From a virus: a stretch of DNA of 10,714 bases. Location: the UHGV virus genome UHGV-0188446, one strand, 5' to 3'. Of the stretch, positions 841 to 10,155 are shown one piece after another. Made by a program: the position numbers and the translations under genes. Each line of letters starts with the position of its first letter. Positions within the stretch are counted from its first letter, which is position 1. The notes below the pieces were generated by a model. It was given only the letters and a program-made list of their open reading frames with translations, did not search any database and was not told the origin of the DNA.

Positions 841-913
841 CCAATAGTGAATAGTTAGTTGAAAGGTATGCGTGGAAACGCATATGGCCTTAGTTGGTCA
901 GATATCTTGGGGC

Positions 914-959
914 TCGCTTTGTCAGCGACGTAGGACGAATGTCCATTGTGAAAAGAGCG
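914..959 (-). promoter_or_regulatory. Candidate nutR: boxA-like CGCTCTTTT (complement of 951-959) and P22-type boxB hairpin TCGCTGACAAAGCGA (complement of 914-928)
   Basis: On the PR transcript just after the cro stop, CGCTCTTTT matches the boxA consensus. It is followed about 22 nt later by a 5-bp stem with GACAA pentaloop, the same loop as the nutL boxB at 3851-3865. The spacer is longer than in lambda. Confidence 0.4.
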
Positions 960-966
960 GTGTTAC

Positions 967-1167
967 TTATGCAGTTGTTTTTTTGTTACTTGGGAAGGGC
1001 TTTATTTCTTCCGCATAAACGCTTCCATCAGCGTTTATAGTTAAAAAAATCTTTCGGCCTGCATGAATGGCCTTGTTAATCGCGCTTTGATATACGCCGA
1101 GATCTTTAGCCGTCTTGGTTTGCCCAAAGCGTATTGCATAATCTTTCAGGGTTATGCGTTGTTCCAT
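967..1167 (-). CDS. cro: Cro repressor
   Basis: 66-aa [69 protein letters not shown], essentially the lambda Cro sequence as recalled. AGGAGG Shine-Dalgarno (complement of 1171-1176). Divergent from cI across the OR operators. Confidence 0.95.
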
Positions 1168-1191
1168 ACAACCTCCTTAGTACAGGCAATC

Positions 1192-1262
1192 ATTATCACC
1201 GCTAGAGGTAAAATAGTCAACACGCACGGTGTTAGAAGTTTATCCCTTGCGGTGATAGATTT
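1192..1262. promoter_or_regulatory. Right operator OR1-OR2-OR3 with divergent promoters PR (toward cro) and PRM (toward cI)
   Basis: Three 17-bp lambda-type operators: OR1 1194-1210 tatcaccgctagaggta, OR2 1218-1234 caacacgcacggtgtta, OR3 1241-1257 tatcccttgcggtgata. PR -10 is GATAAT (complement of 1192-1197) and -35 is TTGACT (complement of 1215-1220) with 17-bp spacing. PRM lies on the plus strand with the cI ATG at 1268 directly downstream (leaderless arrangement as in lambda). Confidence 0.9.
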
Positions 1263-1264
1263 AA

Positions 1265-1981
<717 letters not shown>

Positions 1982-2130
1982 TGGGCAAGGTGTTCTGGTC
2001 GGCGCATAGCTGGTGAAAAAATTATTTAATGCGGTGTATTGGCTGATTGTAACCCCATGTAACATCTTGCCGTCACCATTTCGGTGGTTAGATTTTTAAT
2101 AAAAAAAACAAATGTATAGCAAGGTTTTTT

Positions 2131-2610
2131 ATGGATAAAATTAATTACCCACCCCTGTTTGAGCCAGGGTTCCATGACATGGATGAAGCTGGATTAAAAT
2201 CGTATTGTGTCGATTGCTTTCCTTCATCATCCAGGCGAGGCATGCTATACTGTAATTTTATACAGCTACTCGAATCTATTCGAGAATTATCTGCTCAATA
2301 TGGCTGTTTTACAGAAATATGGGTTGATGGTTCATACACCACGTCTAAACCAGAGCCTGATGATATTGATATTTTGTTGGTATGTGACTATAGCAATATA
2401 AACTCAATACCTGTCATGCTTCGGGGCCGCGTCGATAATTTGCTTGACCGAAACTACATCAAACAAAACTACAAAATTGATGTCCTACTACTCATGAAGA
2501 ATTTAGATGACCCTAACTATGATTATGAGTACTGGCGTAGCTACTGGCGCGGTTGGTTTGGTTTTGATCGCAGTGAAAACCCGAAAGGGTTAGTGAGGAT
2601 TTTTTTATGA
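2131..2610 (+). CDS. Hypothetical protein with minimal nucleotidyltransferase (pol-beta superfamily) signature; first gene of a two-gene cassette in the rexA/rexB position
   Basis: ORF track 2131..2610, 159 aa. Motif IWVDGSYTTSKPEPDDIDILLVCD fits the hG[GS]-x(9-13)-DhD pattern of minimal nucleotidyltransferases. AAGG about 9 nt upstream of the ATG. Stop overlaps the next gene's start (ATGA at 2607-2610). No resemblance to lambda RexA. Confidence 0.7.
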   Translation: MDKINYPPLFEPGFHDMDEAGLKSYCVDCFPSSSRRGMLYCNFIQLLESIRELSAQYGCFTEIWVDGSYTTSKPEPDDIDILLVCDYSNINSIPVMLRGRVDNLLDRNYIKQNYKIDVLLLMKNLDDPNYDYEYWRSYWRGWFGFDRSENPKGLVRIFL

Positions 2611-3539
2611 ATGATAAATCAATGTTTAAAAATTGCGATAAACGCATTGATTTCATTCAAAAAGAAGTCGATGCAATGAAGCAAAACAAAACCAGGTCCT
2701 TTGCTGACATGCTTCTTTATCGCTCCATGGATTCTCATCTGAGCGATTTGAAGGCCGAAAAATTAAAGCAAGATAGTCGGCACCCACTTATCGATTTTTT
2801 TGAGCTGCGGCTGAAAGGCTCTGAGGTTGACTTTGGCTCTATTCCTTTAGAGCTGCTTGGGGCTATTTCAACAAATCTTGCAGCGCTAATACAAAGAGCA
2901 ACACACAAAATTGCCTCAGGCAAGGACTCAAAAAAAGTTCCCTACGACGTGAAAAGCTCCTTAAACCTCAGGCTGGCTGATTTATCCCCTGGGTCTACAA
3001 AATTGGGCGTCACCTTCTCTACAGGAATAGCAGAATTAGTAGAAACAGTACCCAGCAAGGCTGTAAAAGGCATATTCGATTTGTTGTTAAGCGATGACGA
3101 CAACAACTTCATGAATCACGTCGCTGAAATTGGATACAATTCCACTGTAAGCCTTAAGAGAATCGTAGAGGAATGCGATAAACACAACTTAACATTTGAT
3201 GCAAGTTGGACCGGTCCATTTAGTAATGGCACCAAGGTGGCAACTATTGACTCCAATAAAATTAAGTACTTGGTGAGTAGACTTACATCAACCATTTCAT
3301 CCCCTCCCATTACTGAAACGGTTACAGGCGAACTGGTCGTTCTATCCAAATATGGGAAGCTGGAGCTTGATGTTGGTGGTGAACATTTAAAGGCTTCCTA
3401 TCCGATTGAAATGCTAGATTTAATACAAAAAAAACACAAGGTCGGACAGATTGTTTCTCTTTTAGTGGAGACTACTGAGATTCACAATGATCGCATAGGT
3501 CTGTACCGTAAAAACCATCTTGTTAAATCGGTTCTTTAA
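2607..3539 (+). CDS. Hypothetical 310-aa soluble protein of unknown function; second gene of the cassette, translationally coupled to the nucleotidyltransferase gene
   Basis: ORF track 2607..3539. ATG overlaps the upstream stop. No long hydrophobic segments, no Walker motifs, no resemblance to RexB seen by eye. An Rx4H string (RSMDSH, aa 39-44) is noted but is weak evidence. Followed by an intrinsic terminator. Confidence 0.7.
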   Translation: MNDKSMFKNCDKRIDFIQKEVDAMKQNKTRSFADMLLYRSMDSHLSDLKAEKLKQDSRHPLIDFFELRLKGSEVDFGSIPLELLGAISTNLAALIQRATHKIASGKDSKKVPYDVKSSLNLRLADLSPGSTKLGVTFSTGIAELVETVPSKAVKGIFDLLLSDDDNNFMNHVAEIGYNSTVSLKRIVEECDKHNLTFDASWTGPFSNGTKVATIDSNKIKYLVSRLTSTISSPPITETVTGELVVLSKYGKLELDVGGEHLKASYPIEMLDLIQKKHKVGQIVSLLVETTEIHNDRIGLYRKNHLVKSVL

Positions 3540-3546
3540 TATCTCA

Positions 3547-3572
3547 CCCGGCCACCGAGCCGGGTTTTCTTT
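3547..3572 (+). terminator. Rho-independent terminator closing the cI/cassette transcription unit
   Basis: GC-rich hairpin cccggc-caccga-gccggg (3547-3564) followed by ttttcttt (3565-3572), 8 nt after the stop of the 310-aa gene. Confidence 0.7.
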
Positions 3573-3719
3573 GCCTACCCCCCCCCAAAAAAAACACATA
3601 ACCAATTGTATTTATTTGAAAATTAATAGATACAACTCACTAAACATAGCAATTCAGATCTCTCACCTACCAAACAATGCCCCCTGCAAAAAATAAATTC
3701 ATATAAAAAACATACAGAT

Positions 3720-3782
3720 AACCATCTGCGGTGATTAATTATCTCTAGCGGTGTTGACATAAATACCACTGGCGGTGATACT
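3720..3782 (+). promoter_or_regulatory. Left operator OL3-OL2-OL1 with promoter PL (transcribing rightward in this window)
   Basis: OL3 3720-3736 aaccatctgcggtgatt, OL2 3740-3756 tatctctagcggtgttg, OL1 3764-3780 taccactggcggtgata. PL -35 TTGACA at 3754-3759 and -10 GATACT at 3777-3782 with 17-bp spacing. Near-identical to the lambda PL region as recalled. Confidence 0.92.
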
Positions 3783-3850
3783 AAACACATCAGCAGGACG
3801 CACTACTCACCAGGGCGGTGAATATACAACGATTCGAATATGAATCTACG

Positions 3851-3865
3851 GCGCTGACAAAGCGC
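3851..3865 (+). promoter_or_regulatory. nutL boxB hairpin of P22 type (GCGCUGACAAAGCGC)
   Basis: Perfect 5-bp stem gcgct/agcgc with pentaloop gacaa about 60 nt downstream of the PL start. This matches the P22 boxB as I recall it rather than lambda boxB (GCCCUGAAGAAGGGC). No clear boxA was recognised upstream. Confidence 0.6.
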
Positions 3866-3870
3866 AATAA

Positions 3871-4013
3871 CCAAAGTGAACTTTGGGGTGTGGTGAAGGG
3901 TTCATGGACGGGAATATGTCGCACGTAAAGCGGCGAGGCCTGCGGGACTATTGCCGAATTGAAGTAGGCCGAAACAGGTCGAAATGGGTCTCCCACCTAC
4001 CACACCACCAAAG
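3871..4013 (+). promoter_or_regulatory. N-leader RNA structure: long-range stem (3881-3895 with 4000-4013) plus competing local hairpin (3871-3886)
   Basis: ctttggggtgtggtg (3881-3895) is complementary to ccacaccaccaaag (4000-4013) with one bulge. ccaaag-tgaa-ctttgg (3871-3886) can form an alternative local hairpin. Lambda has an equivalent long-range leader duplex upstream of N that is processed by RNase III (recalled). The stem ends 8 nt before the N Shine-Dalgarno. Confidence 0.5.
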
Positions 4014-4030
4014 TTCATCAGGAGGTCTAT

Positions 4031-4414
4031 ATGACACGCAGAACTCAGTTCAAAGGCAATTCACGTTCTCGTCGTCGTGAGCGTTTAAAGGCAAAGGCAT
4101 TAGCTAACGGCGTGCTGGCCCGCGAAGAAGCAATAAGTTCAGAAGTATTACACCGCCCTACTCTAAGCAGAGCGCAGATTCAGGCTAAAGGTACTCACGA
4201 AACGCCTGAGCGCATAGAAGACGCTAAGCCAATTAAGTTCATGGCACAGGACGTGATCTGGCAACAGAAAGAATACAGACGCAATCTGGAGAGAGCGGCC
4301 ATTGTGTACGCGAATGAGTTTGGGCATAGGCAACCAGAAACTGGTGTATGTCTTCCAAATGTAGCTCTTTACGCGGCAGGCTACAGGAAATCAAAACAAC
4401 TGACAGCAAGGTGA
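4031..4414 (+). CDS. N: N-like transcription antitermination protein, P22 gene 24-like family, with arginine-rich N-terminal motif
   Basis: First gene downstream of PL/nutL. GGAGG Shine-Dalgarno at 4021-4025. N-terminal arginine-rich motif (NSRSRRRERLKAKALA). C-terminus ..CLPNVALYAAGYRKSKQLTAR resembles the P22 N C-terminus (..LLPGVALYAAGHRKSKQITAR) as recalled. Confidence 0.8.
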   Translation: MTRRTQFKGNSRSRRRERLKAKALANGVLAREEAISSEVLHRPTLSRAQIQAKGTHETPERIEDAKPIKFMAQDVIWQQKEYRRNLERAAIVYANEFGHRQPETGVCLPNVALYAAGYRKSKQLTAR

Positions 4415-4416
4415 CT

Positions 4417-4464
4417 TGTGTTGGTCGCCAGAAAATAAAATTAGGCAGCAAACCACTTATTTGA
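4417..4464 (+). pseudogene. Fossil 3' end of a lambda-type N gene (encodes CVGRQKIKLGSKPLI then stop), out of frame with the intact N
   Basis: Hand translation of 4417-4461 gives CVGRQKIKLGSKPLI followed by TGA. This matches the C-terminus of lambda-type N (..GRQKIK.KS.PLI) as recalled. It sits directly after the stop of the P22-type N in a different frame, so it looks like a recombination scar. Confidence 0.55.
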
Positions 4465-4472
4465 GGTGATAT

Positions 4473-4559
4473 ATGGAAGAAGAATTTGAAGAGTTCGAAG
4501 AGCATCCGCAGGATGTGATGGAACAATACCAGGACTATCCGTATGACTACGACTATTGA
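4473..4559 (+). CDS. Candidate 28-aa highly acidic micro-protein (MEEEFEEFEEHPQDVMEQYQDYPYDYDY)
   Basis: ATG at 4473 preceded by GAGGT 7 nt upstream; stop TGA at 4557-4559. Overlaps the ral start. Not in the ORF track because of size. Coding status uncertain. Confidence 0.25.
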   Translation: MEEEFEEFEEHPQDVMEQYQDYPYDYDY

Positions 4560-4743
4560 TAAGAATCAATGGTGTGGACAATTCAAACGATGCAATGGAT
4601 GCAAGCTGCAATCGGAATGCATGGTTAAGCCTGAAGAAATGTTTCCTGTAATGGAAGATGGGAAATATGTCGATAAATGGGCAATACGAACGACGGCAAT
4701 GATTGCCAGAGAACTTGGTAAACAGAATAACAAGGCTGCCTGA
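4543..4743 (+). CDS. ral: Ral, restriction alleviation protein
   Basis: 66-aa ORF MTTTIDKNQWCGQFKRCNGCKLQSECMVKPEEMFPVMEDGKYVDKWAIRTTAMIARELGKQNNKAA, matching lambda Ral as recalled. Same length as lambda ral (201 nt). Confidence 0.9.
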   Translation: MTTTIDKNQWCGQFKRCNGCKLQSECMVKPEEMFPVMEDGKYVDKWAIRTTAMIARELGKQNNKAA

Positions 4744-4789
4744 TGGTAGCCTTTATTTTTGGCATAAACAACAGAATAAACACTGCACT

Positions 4790-4817
4790 GTGTATTCATT
4801 CCAATGAGTGAATACAC
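4790..4817. other. 12-bp inverted repeat with 4-nt spacer (gtgtattcattc-caat-gagtgaatacac); strong hairpin or dimeric protein-binding site
   Basis: Arms 4790-4801 and 4806-4817 are complementary at 11 of 12 positions (the remaining pair is G-U in RNA). No adjacent T-run on the plus strand. Confidence 0.5.
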
Positions 4818-4879
4818 GGAGCAATGTCGCTCGTAACTAAACAGGAGCCGACTTGTTCTGATTATTGGAAATCTTCTTT

Positions 4880-4905
4880 GCCCTCCAATGTGAGGGCCTT
4901 TTTAT
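4880..4905 (+). terminator. Rho-independent terminator
   Basis: gccctc-caatgt-gagggc stem-loop (4880-4897) followed by ctttttat. Confidence 0.6.
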
Positions 4906-4917
4906 ATGCATACCAAT

Positions 4918-4941
4918 AACGCTTCACTCGAGGCGTTTTTC
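4918..4941 (+). terminator. Second hairpin plus T-run (candidate tandem terminator) just upstream of cIII
   Basis: aacgc(t)/(g)gcgtt stem around an 8-nt loop, followed by ttttt (4936-4940). Confidence 0.45.
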
Positions 4942-4966
4942 GTTATGTATAAATAAGGAGCACACC

Positions 4967-5107
4967 ATGCAATATGCCATTGCAGGGTGGCCTGTTGCTG
5001 GCTGCCCTTCCGAATCTTTACTTGAACGAATCACACGTAAATTACGTGATGGATGGAAACGCCTTATCGACATACTTAATCAGCCAGGAGTTCCCAAAAA
5101 TGGATAA
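4967..5107 (+). CDS. cIII: CIII, protector of CII (FtsH/HflB inhibitor)
   Basis: ATG at 4967 with AAGGAG 6 nt upstream. 46-aa product MQYAIAGWPVAGCPSESLLERITRKLRDGWKRLIDILNQPGVPKNG matches lambda CIII over its length except for a shorter C-terminus, as recalled. The ORF track shows a longer in-frame form from 4865, which I reject. Confidence 0.8.
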   Translation: MQYAIAGWPVAGCPSESLLERITRKLRDGWKRLIDILNQPGVPKNG

Positions 5108-5213
5108 AACACTTATGGCTATCCAGACTAAATTCACTATCGCCACTTTTATTGGCGATGAAAAGATGTTTCGTGAAGCCGTAGAAGCCTACAGAAAATG
5201 GAGGTCAAAATGA
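5100..5213 (+). CDS. kil: Kil-like host cell-division inhibitor
   Basis: ATG at 5100 overlapping the cIII stop (as kil overlaps cIII in lambda). 37-aa product MDKTLMAIQTKFTIATFIGDEKMFREAVEAYRKWRSK resembles the lambda Kil N-terminus as recalled. The ORF track's longer form from 4974 is rejected. Confidence 0.55.
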   Translation: MDKTLMAIQTKFTIATFIGDEKMFREAVEAYRKWRSK

Positions 5214-5398
5214 TTCCGGTAGAACTGGCGAAAACTCCAGAGTTAAGTCGATTAAAAAGAGAATATCACATTGCTGAGGCTCGTTACTGGCGTAAAGCGG
5301 GAGATAAATCAAAGAAACAACTTTGTTTATGGCAGGCGCAAAGAGAGCGCATGAATGAGCGCGAATTTCTTTCCTGCCCATCCGAATTACCATTCTGA
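5210..5398 (+). CDS. Hypothetical protein (62 aa)
   Basis: ATG at 5210 overlaps the kil stop (ATGA). GGAGG 6 nt upstream. Product MIPVELAKTPELSRLKREYHIAEARYWRKAGDKSKKQLCLWQAQRERMNEREFLSCPSELPF. Confidence 0.5.
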   Translation: MIPVELAKTPELSRLKREYHIAEARYWRKAGDKSKKQLCLWQAQRERMNEREFLSCPSELPF

Positions 5399-5406
5399 GG
5401 CAAATT

Positions 5407-6087
5407 ATGGGAACTGCGACATTAATACTCGGTGAATCTGGCACCGGAAAATCAACCAGCATGAGAAATATCAACCCAGAGGAAGCAATACTTATAAAAC
5501 CAATAGGCAAGCCGCTACCATTTAAATCAAAAGACTGGCTTGCATGGGATGCCAGAGCAAAAAAAGGAACCGTAGTTACCACTGACAAATGGGACGTAAT
5601 AGTTGCTGTAATTAAGCGTGCTCACGAATACGGAAAAAGAATCGTTATTGTTGATGACTTCCAGTATGTGATGAGCAATGAGTTTATGCGCCGCTCAGAA
5701 GAAAAATCGTTTGATAAATTTACTGAGATAGGCCGCCACGCATGGGAGGTGATTAAGGCTGCACAGGATGCACCTGATGACCTGAGAGTCTATTTTCTTG
5801 CACACACCGAAGAAACCCCTATGGGGCGTGTGAAAATGAAGACTATCGGCAAAATGCTGGACGAGAAAATCACTGTCGAAGGCATGTTTACTATAGTTCT
5901 TCGCACCCTTACCCGCGATGACCAGTTCTTTTTCACCACGAAAAACAACGGTGCAGACACTGTAAAATCCCCAATGGGAATGTTTGATTCTAATGAGATT
6001 GATAACGATCTCTCTTTCGTCGATGCCACTGTTTGTGATTACTACGGCATCAATAATGTTCATCAAATTAAGGAAAACGCCGCATGA
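5407..6087 (+). CDS. Sak4-like phage recombination ATPase (RecA-fold P-loop NTPase)
   Basis: 226-aa ORF with Walker A GESGTGKST near the N-terminus and Walker B-like hhhhDD (RIVIVDD). Size and position in the recombination slot are typical of Sak4-type single-strand annealing ATPases. GAGG Shine-Dalgarno upstream. Confidence 0.65.
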   Translation: MGTATLILGESGTGKSTSMRNINPEEAILIKPIGKPLPFKSKDWLAWDARAKKGTVVTTDKWDVIVAVIKRAHEYGKRIVIVDDFQYVMSNEFMRRSEEKSFDKFTEIGRHAWEVIKAAQDAPDDLRVYFLAHTEETPMGRVKMKTIGKMLDEKITVEGMFTIVLRTLTRDDQFFFTTKNNGADTVKSPMGMFDSNEIDNDLSFVDATVCDYYGINNVHQIKENAA

Positions 6088-6671
6088 GCAACGTGATTTT
6101 TACTTATAACGAAGAAGCAGCACTGACCGCAGGGCAAGGTGGTTTTATTAACGAAACTGGTGCTCATATCATTACCATTACTGAAGCAGAACTAAAGCAA
6201 TCAGAAAAAGGAGCCAAATTTATTGAGTTTTCTGGCGAATCTGACGACGGACGTAAAATCCAATATCTTAGCGTCTGTGTTCAGAAAAATGACGGAACGG
6301 AAAACAAATTTGGCGCAAATGTCGTTCACGCCATGATGGGGTGTGCCGGGATTGGACAATTAACGCAACATATGGTTTCCGCCAGTAAATTTGTTGCTCC
6401 TGAGTTTCATGGAAAGAAAATCGGGTTAGTGCTCCAGAAAGTATTAACCACAAACAAAAAGACTGGCGCAGACAACTACCAGATGGAAATACGCATCCCG
6501 TTTATTGCACAAACAGGTCAAACCCTTAAAGAAAAGGCAGAAGGCAAGCAACCAGAAACTATCGCCAACATGGTTGCCAATCTCAAAGATAAAGACAATC
6601 GCTCTAAAAACGTAAGCCAGAATCATGCAGATGATTATGGTTACAGCCAGAACGATTACCCTGCTTTCTGA
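6084..6671 (+). CDS. Putative ssDNA-binding protein partner of Sak4 (function inferred mainly from context)
   Basis: 195-aa ORF whose ATG overlaps the Sak4 stop (ATGA at 6084-6087). C-terminal tail ..DDYGYSQNDYPAF resembles the acidic/aromatic tails of SSB proteins. Sak4 genes are commonly followed by an SSB. Confidence 0.45.
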   Translation: MSNVIFTYNEEAALTAGQGGFINETGAHIITITEAELKQSEKGAKFIEFSGESDDGRKIQYLSVCVQKNDGTENKFGANVVHAMMGCAGIGQLTQHMVSASKFVAPEFHGKKIGLVLQKVLTTNKKTGADNYQMEIRIPFIAQTGQTLKEKAEGKQPETIANMVANLKDKDNRSKNVSQNHADDYGYSQNDYPAF

Positions 6672-6694: not shown

Positions 6695-6991
6695 ATGCCA
6701 GCGCCTCTGTATGGTGCGGATGACCCGCGCAATTGCTCCGGTAGCTCCAAGGCGGAGGTGCTGGAAAATATCAAAAACATTTTCGACACGTTTATCGATC
6801 TGCCACCAGAAACAAAAGCAGAACGGATGTACCGACGCGATATACAACTCGCGTTAAAAAATGAGAAGGACCGAACAAACGAAACATCAATCCGACCATT
6901 CCGCAAAGCCACATATACCCACTTCCCTGAATATATCGACCCGCGCCTGCGTAATTACCGCTCACGCTATGGCGCTATCAGTAATGACTGA
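6695..6991 (+). CDS. Hypothetical protein (98 aa)
   Basis: ORF track 6695..6991. AAGG upstream. Same strand and operon context. Confidence 0.5.
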
Positions 6992-7169: not shown

Positions 7170-8032
7170 GCAAGATTGACTATCAGGTACTGCGTGCCAA
7201 GGCAGAAAAAGCAACGTGTGGTGTATGGTCGCTCGAATATGGAGAGAGCCGATTTGATGGTGATGATGCTCTAATTTATCGCGAGGCTGCTGGATATATT
7301 CCCATTTGCAGAATTGAAGGAGCGCATCCAGAAAGCGGTTTCGATGAAGATTTCCAAATGGAACAGCAGGCCAATGCTGAATTCATCGCCGCAGCCAATC
7401 CCGCTACCGTCTTGGCCCTGCTGGATGAACTGGAAAGAAACCAGCAATACATAAAACGCCGCGATCAGGAGAACGAGGATATTGCGCTAACGGTAGGGAA
7501 ACTGCGTGTTGAGCTTGAGGAGACAAAATCAAAACTCAACGAGCAGCGCGAGTATTACGAAGGTGTCATCTCGGATGGAAGTAAGCGCATAGCAGAGTTG
7601 CAGACAAAATCTGCACCAGATTCGTTTGGCATCATCGGTGAAAATATTCGAACACAGGATAATCGAATAACGTCAGACCCTATGTTTTGTGTGTATCAAA
7701 AGTGCGAAATTGTTGTTGATGCTGATTATGACTATGACCGGATTGTCTGGGTTGATGAAGATGGCAATGAAGCCAATAAACGCCAAAGTCGTCGTCTCGA
7801 ACTACTTCACGAAAACTTTCGAGAGCCACCAGAAAAATGGCGGCGCGTTGCTGTGAAAGATATTGATGAATTCGTTACCTGCTGTTTCACCGAACAGGGT
7901 TGTAAAGACTACCTGGCAGCCAATGGTCACAATCTTCGCTTGCCATTTATATATGTAAAAAGCGGTTTCAGGAACGCTGAATATATCGGCATAAGAAACT
8001 GGCTTGCTGGCATTCGCATCAAAGGAGAGTGA
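7166..8032 (+). CDS. Ea22-like protein (coiled-coil-containing phage early protein of unknown function)
   Basis: ORF track 7145..8032. Preferred start is GTG at 7166 (AGGAGG 8 nt upstream, GTGA overlap with the upstream stop), giving [15 protein letters not shown].... Assignment rests on position upstream of ea8.5 and general resemblance to Ea22-family proteins; not verified. Confidence 0.5.
8007..8032 (+). repeat. 26-bp direct repeat, copy 1 (ctggcattcgcatcaaaggagagtga)
   Basis: Identical to 8501-8526. Encodes the C-terminal GIRIKGE plus stop of the Ea22-like gene and carries the AAGGAG Shine-Dalgarno for the next gene. Confidence 0.9.
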
Positions 8033-8034
8033 GA

Positions 8035-8526
8035 ATGCAAATTTCACCGGTTACTCTTCGTGTTGCGAAGGCGTTTATATCCAGACATCACCGACACAAT
8101 AAACCCCCGGTGGGGCATAAATTCAGCATTGGTCTGAGAAATGATGCCGGAGAATTGATAGGTGTGGCGACAGCCGGTAGACCTGTTGCACGACATTTGG
8201 ACGATGGATTAACGCTTGAAGTAAATCGCACATGTACCACAGGAGAACGCAACGCTAACAGCGCGCTTTATGGTGCTGTCTGGCGGGCAGCAAAGGCTAT
8301 GGGTTATCAACGTTGTATTACGTACACCCAGGCAGATGAATCAGGAGCATCTCTCCGCGCAGCTGGTTTTGTTCGTGTGAAAGAGCTTCCTCCAAGAAAA
8401 AGCTGGGCGGAATCAAGCGTCGCCCTGCGGAGTAAACGCGATCCGGTCGGAAACGGTGGTGTTCCTCGTGTGCTCTGGGAAATCAGGAGAATGAGTACCA
8501 CTGGCATTCGCATCAAAGGAGAGTGA
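8035..8526 (+). CDS. Hypothetical protein (163 aa), possibly GNAT-like fold; inserted gene bounded by 26-bp direct repeats
   Basis: ATG at 8035 with AAAGGAGAG upstream (the track starts at GTG 8029). Product MQISPVTLRVAKAFISRHHRHNKPPVGHKFSIGL.... The C-terminal GIRIKGE plus stop is encoded by the second repeat copy. Fold assignment is a weak impression only. Confidence 0.5.
   Translation: MQISPVTLRVAKAFISRHHRHNKPPVGHKFSIGLRNDAGELIGVATAGRPVARHLDDGLTLEVNRTCTTGERNANSALYGAVWRAAKAMGYQRCITYTQADESGASLRAAGFVRVKELPPRKSWAESSVALRSKRDPVGNGGVPRVLWEIRRMSTTGIRIKGE
8501..8526 (+). repeat. 26-bp direct repeat, copy 2
   Basis: Perfect copy of 8007-8032. Confidence 0.9.
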
Positions 8527-8728: not shown

Positions 8729-9010
8729 ATGAGTATCAATGAGTTAGAGTCTGAGCAAAAAGATTGGGTGTTATCAATGTTGTGCAGATCCGGTGTCTTG
8801 TCTCCATGCAGACATCACGAAGGTGTTTATGTAGATGAAGGTATAGATATAGAATCGGCATACAAATATTCCATGAAGGTTTATAAGTCTAATGAAGACA
8901 AATCCCCATTCTGCAATGTGCGAGAAATGACTGATACCGTGCAAAATTATTATCACGAGTACGGTGGAAACGATACTTGCCCTCTCTGTACAAAACATAT
9001 AGATGATTAA
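8729..9010 (+). CDS. ea8.5: Ea8.5-like protein (Cys/His-rich, probable zinc-binding)
   Basis: 93-aa ORF, the same length as lambda ea8.5 (282 nt) and in the same relative position between ea22 and xis. Contains C..C..HH...C...CPLC ligand candidates. Sequence matches lambda Ea8.5 as far as I can recall. Confidence 0.6.
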   Translation: MSINELESEQKDWVLSMLCRSGVLSPCRHHEGVYVDEGIDIESAYKYSMKVYKSNEDKSPFCNVREMTDTVQNYYHEYGGNDTCPLCTKHIDD

Positions 9011-9819: not shown

Positions 9820-9936
9820 CCATGAAATAACACCGCCTCACACTCGATGAGGCCTGTTCATTGCTCAATGATATCCAGACCTACCATCGCCGCATCAATG
9901 CGGCTTTTTCTTGCGTGTAATTGCGGAGACTTTGCG

Positions 9937-10155
9937 ATGTACTTGACACTTCAGGAGTGGAACGCACGCCAGCGACGCCCAAGAAGCCTTGAAACAGTTC
10001 GTCGATGGGTGCGCGAATGCAGGATATTCCCTCCTCCGGTTAAGGATGGAAGAGAGTATCTGTTCCACGAATCAGCGGTAAAGGTTGACTTAAATCGACC
10101 AGTAACAGGTAGCCTTTTGAAGAGGATCAGAAATGGGAAGAAGGCGAAGTCATGA
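9937..10155 (+). CDS. xis: Excisionase Xis
   Basis: ATG at 9937 within track ORF 9847..10155. The 72-aa product MYLTLQEWNARQRRPRSLETVRRWVRECRIFPPPVKDGREYLFHESAVKVDLNRPVTGSLLKRIRNGKKAKS matches lambda Xis as recalled. Same length as lambda xis. 3' end overlaps int. Confidence 0.93.
   Translation: MYLTLQEWNARQRRPRSLETVRRWVRECRIFPPPVKDGREYLFHESAVKVDLNRPVTGSLLKRIRNGKKAKS

Follow-up and report, generated by a model that had tools for sequence, protein, structure and literature searches.

A minimal nucleotidyltransferase and its three-part partner protein in the cI-pL slot of a lambda-type phage: a candidate toxin-antitoxin-like pair

Here we describe two overlapping genes, A and B, in a stretch of 10,714 nucleotides (nt) of the virus genome UHGV-0188446; this whole stretch is called the window below. 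Gene A encodes a minimal nucleotidyltransferase of the DUF6932 family with an intact active site, and gene B a partner protein built of a helical hairpin, a mixed alpha/beta domain and an OB fold. The two genes are obligately paired, they occupy the slot that holds rexA-rexB in phage lambda, and both minimal and chaperone-linked versions of the pair exist in Treponema. We propose a toxin-antitoxin-like relation between the two: A would be the toxin, the hairpin of B would neutralise A and the rest of B would sense a signal. We give this reading a probability of about 45%.

The pair is the same system as PDC-M63 of PADLOC: A and B match the M63A and M63B models over their full length, and the genes are adjacent on one strand. 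PDC-M63 is already catalogued but uncharacterised; as catalogued it is a computational candidate, found through guilt-by-embedding, with no mechanism or domain description.

The gene pair and its place between cI and pL

The product of A matches the PDC-M63A model PDLC04744 at 1.8e-41 (aa 1-158) and belongs to phrog_9194. It carries the pol-beta signature hG[GS]...[DE]h[DE]h...h[DE]h, here D66-G67-S68, D78-I-D80 and D117, and the catalytic residues are 100% conserved among 120 homologs. Besides DUF6932, Pfam gives a weak match to DNA_pol_B_palm and no further family, while searches against PDB sequences, with the single sequence and with a profile, returned nothing. The family comprises ~770 clusters at 90% identity. 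No paper in the literature searched mentions DUF6932, and nothing specific was found there on pairs of a nucleotidyltransferase and an OB-fold protein in defence, or on nucleotidyltransferase toxins in toxin-antitoxin-chaperone (TAC) systems.

The two genes overlap by 4 nt, and a GAGG Shine-Dalgarno sequence within the 3' end of A stands 8 nt before the ATG of B. Most distinct A/B junctions of related loci overlap as well, usually as ATGA. When viral contigs were fetched through A alone, a B homolog followed directly after A in all 80 of 80. An earlier note on this DNA had taken the tight coupling to the nucleotidyltransferase gene to imply a common function, and the pairing agrees with this. 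Seen from the other side, a DUF6932 gene was always immediately upstream and overlapping at the divergent B loci that we examined. These are lambdoid prophages of Providencia and E. coli (downstream of the repressor), an element of Serratia that carries a DUF927 primase, a contig from a metagenome, a Bacteroidota-type chromosome, Chryseobacterium and Pseudoalteromonas. The pairing is found in Enterobacterales, Vibrio-like, Pseudoalteromonas and Bacteroidota-type loci. Given this obligate, overlapping pairing and the intact, conserved nucleotidyltransferase signature of A, it is well supported that A and B act together.

A word-indexed search gave 72 close homologs of B, all from Enterobacterales and all of ~310 aa. 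When 1.84 billion representatives were searched exhaustively with a profile, the family grew to 269 clusters (50% identity) at E < 1e-3; nearly all members have 300-325 aa, indicating one conserved architecture for the family. Among 5426 complete E. coli genomes, the lineage of the window is carried by 18 and a 55%-identical lineage by 98. The cassette is frequent on prophages and satellite-like elements, and it also occurs as stand-alone two-gene islets in chromosomes without defence context. Two small adjacent genes on mobile elements, one for an enzyme and one for its partner, have the layout of a toxin-antitoxin module.

The window represents the immunity and early-left region of a temperate phage of lambda type, with the 5' part of O, cII and cro on its minus strand. 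The A-B cassette has the position of rexA-rexB in lambda. By megablast of window 900-4500, the flanks with cI and N are ~96% identical to lambda, HK97 and mEp234. In phages that share these flanks the same gap is filled by rexA-rexB (lambda, SfI), by hicA/hicB (mEp234, HK106), by gp48/gp49 (HK97) or by two hypothetical genes (HK544, CL707). Phage mEpX1 has a different repressor and only window 1955-3575 in common (99.6%), which shows the cassette to be an independently exchanged mosaic unit. It is also inserted in the Serratia element mentioned above.

As in the case of RexA/RexB, the two genes lie on the cI strand, are followed by a terminator and are presumably expressed in the lysogen. However, there is no similarity to RexA/RexB in sequence or architecture, A being a nucleotidyltransferase. 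Gene A starts 149 nt after cI and shares its strand; no strong promoter match was found in the spacer. By analogy with rexAB, it is plausible that the cassette is co-transcribed with cI from PRM in the lysogen.

Several further observations concern the slot. Among lambda-immunity phages it is a hotspot for accessory, toxin-antitoxin and exclusion genes. Between cI and A there is a weak terminator-like hairpin (2069-2088) of 6 pairs, 3 of which are G-C, with a T-rich tail; it could attenuate read-through from PRM. Right behind the terminator of the cassette, where the right-hand mosaic junction lies, there is a C9/A8 homopolymer tract (3579-3596). In two Providencia prophages (L002 and L004, ~5125-5466) an extra DUF3024 gene separates the repressor from the cassette; accessory genes can thus be stacked in the slot.

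PADLOC defines its PDC candidates by their embedding in BREX, DISARM or type I restriction-modification (RM) loci, and this is an independent association of PDC-M63 with defence. The match to such a candidate, together with the rexAB slot, bears out the defence-type context that the earlier note had suspected. A defence role of the cassette itself is unproven, and its one published test, the deletion described below, was negative.

Architecture of B and its minimal relatives

The earlier note had regarded B as a protein without a recognisable domain and as a possible novel effector or sensor. For Pfam and NCBIfam the first part holds: no Pfam family is matched at E < 0.1 and no NCBIfam family at all, and scanning 145 members of the B family singly against Pfam gave no consistent family. 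However, both PADLOC and PHROG recognise B. The PDC-M63B model PDLC04749 matches aa 23-304 at 7.5e-45 (positions 20-300 of 309), five more PDC-M63B models match as well, and phrog_6603 is hit at 3.4e-147; further, an OB fold is predicted at the C-terminus. B is therefore no unrecognisable novelty, but a known protein that is also present in phage mEpX1.

The basic description of B needs no change. The open reading frame (ORF) has the position, strand and length given before, and its start overlaps the stop of the upstream gene. There is no Walker A motif and no transmembrane stretch (maximal Kyte-Doolittle hydropathy over 19 residues 1.38, GRAVY -0.24), unlike in RexB, and a RexB-like membrane effector was rejected for lack of transmembrane helices. 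The Rx4H string RSMDSH (aa 39-44) had been suspected to be a chance occurrence, and it is one: Rx4H appears in 28% of shuffles of B, and Rx4-6H in 62%. Over 142 sequences, position 39 is S, E, R, K or A, varying even among close relatives, while H44 is a histidine in 83. A HEPN identity was also rejected, as the Rx4-6H motif is not conserved and the fold is not the all-alpha four-helix fold of HEPN. Comparing B with Pfam, NCBIfam and PDB sequences, both singly and by profile, yielded no meaningful match; the best two, one of 37 residues to an LPXTG protein (E 0.003-0.006) and one to PSV_trans_reg_dom (0.19), were treated as noise.

Residues 1-231 of B were modelled with AlphaFold2 (AF2) from an alignment of 145 sequences that includes distant representatives (pLDDT 90.9, pTM 0.84). 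The model starts with a helical hairpin, in which F32-A33-L36-S40-L41-H44-L48 form a stripe with i/i+4 spacing along one helix face. Residues conserved throughout the family are E/D63, R68, G77, P80, L81, R122, G129, W201 and G241, and in 142-145 diverse sequences S130 is the sole invariant residue.

Proteins consisting of little more than the hairpin are found as partners of DUF6932 in Treponema. In T. putidum, a DUF6932 gene is followed by the gene of a 105-aa protein, an overlapping gene for a SecB-like protein and then an integrase gene. In a metagenome-assembled genome of Treponema (563-1293 of the contig), a 151-aa DUF6932 protein (pI 9.0) is followed, with a 4-nt overlap, by a 92-aa partner (pI 5.5); here there is no chaperone gene, and nothing related comes after the 92-aa gene. 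The homology of both small partners to B is confined to its N-terminal hairpin. Alignment of B to them with hhalign gave 95.5% over aa 9-85 and 97.2% over aa 6-64, with independent support from hmmsearch (8e-8) and from PADLOC PDC-M63B (1.2e-5), and both carry the stripe described above.

An enzyme of ~150 aa with a partner of ~100 aa is the classical toxin-antitoxin format. The gene order of these minimal forms puts DUF6932 in the position of the toxin and the hairpin protein in that of the antitoxin. By extension, the hairpin of B would be the ancestral element that binds and neutralises DUF6932, and the alpha/beta and OB domains are plausibly a later accretion that took over regulation or sensing from chaperone addiction.

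The T. putidum trio, from the locus at 2807-5240 of its contig, is TAC-like. Its SecB-like protein matches PADLOC PD-T4-9_C, the chaperone of CmdTAC, at 2.5e-10. The C-terminal tail of the 105-aa protein, VDFSDYSASYHG, is rich in aromatic residues that follow Asp or Ser. In TAC modules, which are prophage-borne antiphage modules with the gene order toxin-antitoxin-chaperone, the antitoxin has an aromatic-rich C-terminal ChAD tail that the chaperone shields, and phage proteins set the system off by drawing the chaperone away (10.1101/2024.02.24.581848). The cassette of the window differs from these systems (HigBAC, CmdTAC / PD-T4-9) in that B has folded alpha/beta and OB domains instead of a disordered ChAD tail, that there is no chaperone gene, and that the proposed toxin is a nucleotidyltransferase and not an RNase or ADP-ribosyltransferase. 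Downstream of B in the window there is the terminator at 3546 and no SecB-like gene; a SecB-like gene was found in T. putidum only.

The hairpin-only partners also bear on the idea of a CBASS-like signalling pair, where a nucleotide second messenger would be the product of A, with B as its receptor and effector. A nucleotidyltransferase beside an uncharacterised partner in a defence-type context would fit such a system. However, A is a minimal enzyme of ~150 aa that matches no CD-NTase or SMODS family in Pfam or PADLOC, B has no effector domain, and partners that consist of a hairpin cannot be receptor-effectors. We consider this explanation highly improbable.

The alpha/beta domain of B has no solved structural relative. 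Foldseek against BFVD pairs it with a DUF6575 protein (E 2.2e-8, TM 0.57), and PADLOC PDC-M32A matches aa 62-146 at 3.4e-5. In sequence, B has no Pfam match to DUF6575, and hhalign to one such protein, from Treponema, gave 0.4%; a relationship to DUF6575 is thus suggested at the level of the modelled structure alone. A DUF6575 protein is also encoded just upstream of the T. putidum trio, followed by an overlapping 119-aa ORF. It shares with the 105-aa protein a motif of 22 residues, S..S.QL..S.LERHKE (BLASTP 1e-5).

The C-terminal domain of B is predicted as a five-stranded barrel with the order beta1-3, helix, beta4-5 and has significant structural matches, as is typical of an OB fold. Its nearest structural neighbours are RuvA domain I, SSB, RPA and PriB, at a sequence identity of just 8-20%. 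This neighbourhood could point to a targeting subunit without any toxin-antitoxin logic: the OB fold would bind ends of phage single-stranded DNA or RNA and recruit A, which would add nucleotides to these ends and so block replication, recombination or packaging. The stoichiometric co-expression of A and B and the weak match of A to the DNA polymerase beta palm agree with it. However, the minimal systems keep the pairing without an OB domain, the OB domain of B is not basic, and there is so far no defence phenotype (PMC12409345), so we find it improbable.

Taken as a whole, B should be described as a partner protein of the nucleotidyltransferase in three parts, and not as an effector that hides a catalytic domain. 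The suggestion of an effector or sensor in the earlier note can accordingly be kept for the sensor, which is plausible as the role of part of B. An effector is unlikely, as there is no catalytic signature and the minimal partners have only the hairpin.

The proposed mechanism, weighed against its alternatives

In the toxin-antitoxin-like mechanism that we favour, the cassette would be an accessory module of a lambda-immunity prophage, expressed in the lysogen from the rexAB slot. A, as an active minimal nucleotidyltransferase, would be the growth-arresting component, and translational coupling would keep the production of B in a fixed ratio to that of A. B would bind A with its N-terminal hairpin and keep it inactive, while the alpha/beta domain and the OB fold would serve as an added sensor for a nucleic-acid or protein cue. 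Such a cue may arise when another phage infects the cell, or when the element is lost. A would then be released or redirected and the infection aborted, by exclusion or addiction. The toxic member, the target of A, the cue of B and the role in phage exclusion are inferred.

Pairs with a related enzyme are known. In AbiEi/AbiEii and MenA/MenT, a nucleotidyltransferase of the pol-beta superfamily is the presumed toxic enzyme of a defence-linked two-gene module. However, A is a DUF6932 protein of 159 aa and not a member of the DUF1814/AbiEii family of ~290 aa, to which it has no Pfam match. Further, the nucleotidyltransferase gene of the window lies upstream of its partner, and B is unrelated to AbiEi and MenA.

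Naturally disrupted copies of the cassette give some further information. In E. coli KL53 an IS4-like element has removed the 5' end of A while B is intact, and in one of the 80 viral contigs fetched through A a 1-nt deletion shifts the frame of B at ~aa 219, with aa 1-219 including the hairpin kept. Both fit A as the toxin; in the proposed model the loss of A in KL53 is tolerable because A is the toxic member.

Several observations weigh against this reading. In E. coli OkiPb01716 an IS3 element separates an intact A from an intact B, which is awkward, as the separation would be risky if B must be co-translated with a toxin. In systems with a large B, A is acidic (median pI 5.1), which is unusual for a toxin that targets nucleic acids; in general, pI values failed to tell toxin from antitoxin. 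The homology of the hairpin spans no more than ~60-75 helical residues. The OB domain has a pI of 6.9 and no basic surplus, so nucleic-acid binding is not assured. Finally, when PDC-M63AB was deleted in its native host, E. coli NILS69, the infectivity of 10 virulent phages was unchanged (PMC12409345).

The gene order and the acidic A can also be read in the opposite sense. In the MntA/HepT (MNT-HEPN) system, a type VII toxin-antitoxin system, a small minimal nucleotidyltransferase is likewise encoded upstream of, and overlapping, its partner (general knowledge and, in part, PMC13000451). A would then be protective and nucleotidylylate B, for instance at Ser130 in the G129-S130 beta-turn, and B would be the effector by way of its OB and alpha/beta domains. 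That many antitoxins are acidic, and that S130 is the one invariant position of B, would agree with this. However, B has no recognisable catalytic signature, the S130 region is wholly missing from the natural minimal partners, and KL53 keeps an intact B beside a disrupted A. We see only a small chance for it. B also differs from HepT in not being a HEPN protein; under the mechanism with A as toxin, the direction of control is probably reversed compared with HepT.

Another alternative concerns the biological role and not the biochemistry, and therefore partly overlaps with the toxin-antitoxin-like mechanism. The cassette may be a selfish addiction module, or it may have a stress or regulatory function in the lysogen, with no role against other phages. 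The negative deletion test in the native host, the two-gene islets that stand alone in chromosomes and the rarity of both lineages in E. coli speak for such a role. However, RexAB and HicAB use the same slot, the PADLOC candidates come from embedding in BREX, DISARM and RM loci, the cassette is frequent on prophages and satellite-like elements, and the deletion test covered just 10 virulent phages. Overall, we regard a purely selfish or non-defence role as unlikely.

The proposed mechanism can be extended to the whole family. DUF6932 would be a new family of nucleotidyltransferase toxins whose antitoxin comes in three grades: the hairpin only, the hairpin with a ChAD-like tail and a SecB chaperone, and the hairpin fused to a folded sensor. 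The cassette of the window would belong to this last grade; its sensor would consist of an undescribed alpha/beta fold and an OB fold, and would detect phage nucleic acid or protein and release the nucleotidyltransferase. B would then unite antitoxin and sensor in a single polypeptide, and the cassette would be a new abortive-infection mechanism in the classical rex slot of lambda-type phages. We regard this extension as less likely than not.

Features of the window and significance of the pair

The coordinates of the cassette and of its surroundings are collected in Table 1.

Table 1. Genes, domains and signals in and around the A-B cassette (positions in the window).
Feature	Position	Strand	Evidence
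cI repressor, 237 aa, lambda-type	1268-1981	+	Pfam Peptidase_S24 7e-29, HTH_3 2.6e-11
Mosaic unit: last ~27 nt of cI, intergenic region, genes A and B, terminator	1955-3575	+	99.6% match to mEpX1
Gene A, 159-aa minimal pol-beta-type nucleotidyltransferase, DUF6932 / PDC-M63A	2131-2610	+	Pfam DUF6932 1.7e-24
Translational-coupling junction: GAGG Shine-Dalgarno (2595-2598) within 3' end of A and ATGA overlap (2607-2610)	2595-2610	+	Sequence
Gene B, 310 aa, PDC-M63B / phrog_6603	2607-3539	+	ORF; PADLOC and PHROG matches
B aa 9-57, helical hairpin (helices 10-25 and 32-57)	2631-2777	+	AF2
B aa 60-231, mixed alpha/beta domain, five strands and six helices	2784-3299	+	AF2
B aa 232-310, OB fold, beta1-beta2-beta3-alpha-beta4-beta5	3300-3536	+	Predicted structure
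Strong intrinsic terminator directly after B; stem of 7 bp with 6 G-C pairs (3546-3565) and T-run; ends the cassette ahead of oL/pL	3546-3575	+	
Lambda pL promoter, TTGACA-17-GATACT; drives N; right border of the variable slot	3754-3782	+	
N gene	4031-4414	+	Pfam N_peptide 1.7e-15

The early-left region beyond the slot is a mosaic of lambda and P22. It encodes a Ral antirestriction protein (4543-4743), a P22-type Abc2 anti-RecBCD protein (6695-6991), an Ea8.5-related protein (8729-9010) and a lambda Xis-like ORF (9847-10155). At 5407-6671 an AAA_24-type ATPase (226 aa) is followed by an ATGA-overlapping ORF of 195 aa without Pfam match; the two may be a recombination/annealing pair in the position of lambda exo/bet. 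A 165-aa ORF (8029-8526) overlaps the end of an Ea22-like gene and has a sub-threshold match to the Mom family (7.2e-5; 23 bits, where the cutoff is 27.1). This may be an accessory gene for DNA modification or one of acetyltransferase-like type.

Historically, the slot between cI and pL in lambdoid phages belongs to RexAB, which was the first abortive-infection system to be described. The candidate family that we find in this slot spans Proteobacteria, Bacteroidota-type loci and spirochaetes, as well as many prophages, and its link to minimal and chaperone-containing forms turns a widespread candidate into a testable toxin-antitoxin-sensor hypothesis. If this hypothesis is true, A would represent a new class of nucleotidyltransferase toxins, and B an antitoxin that has acquired a folded sensor in place of chaperone addiction.

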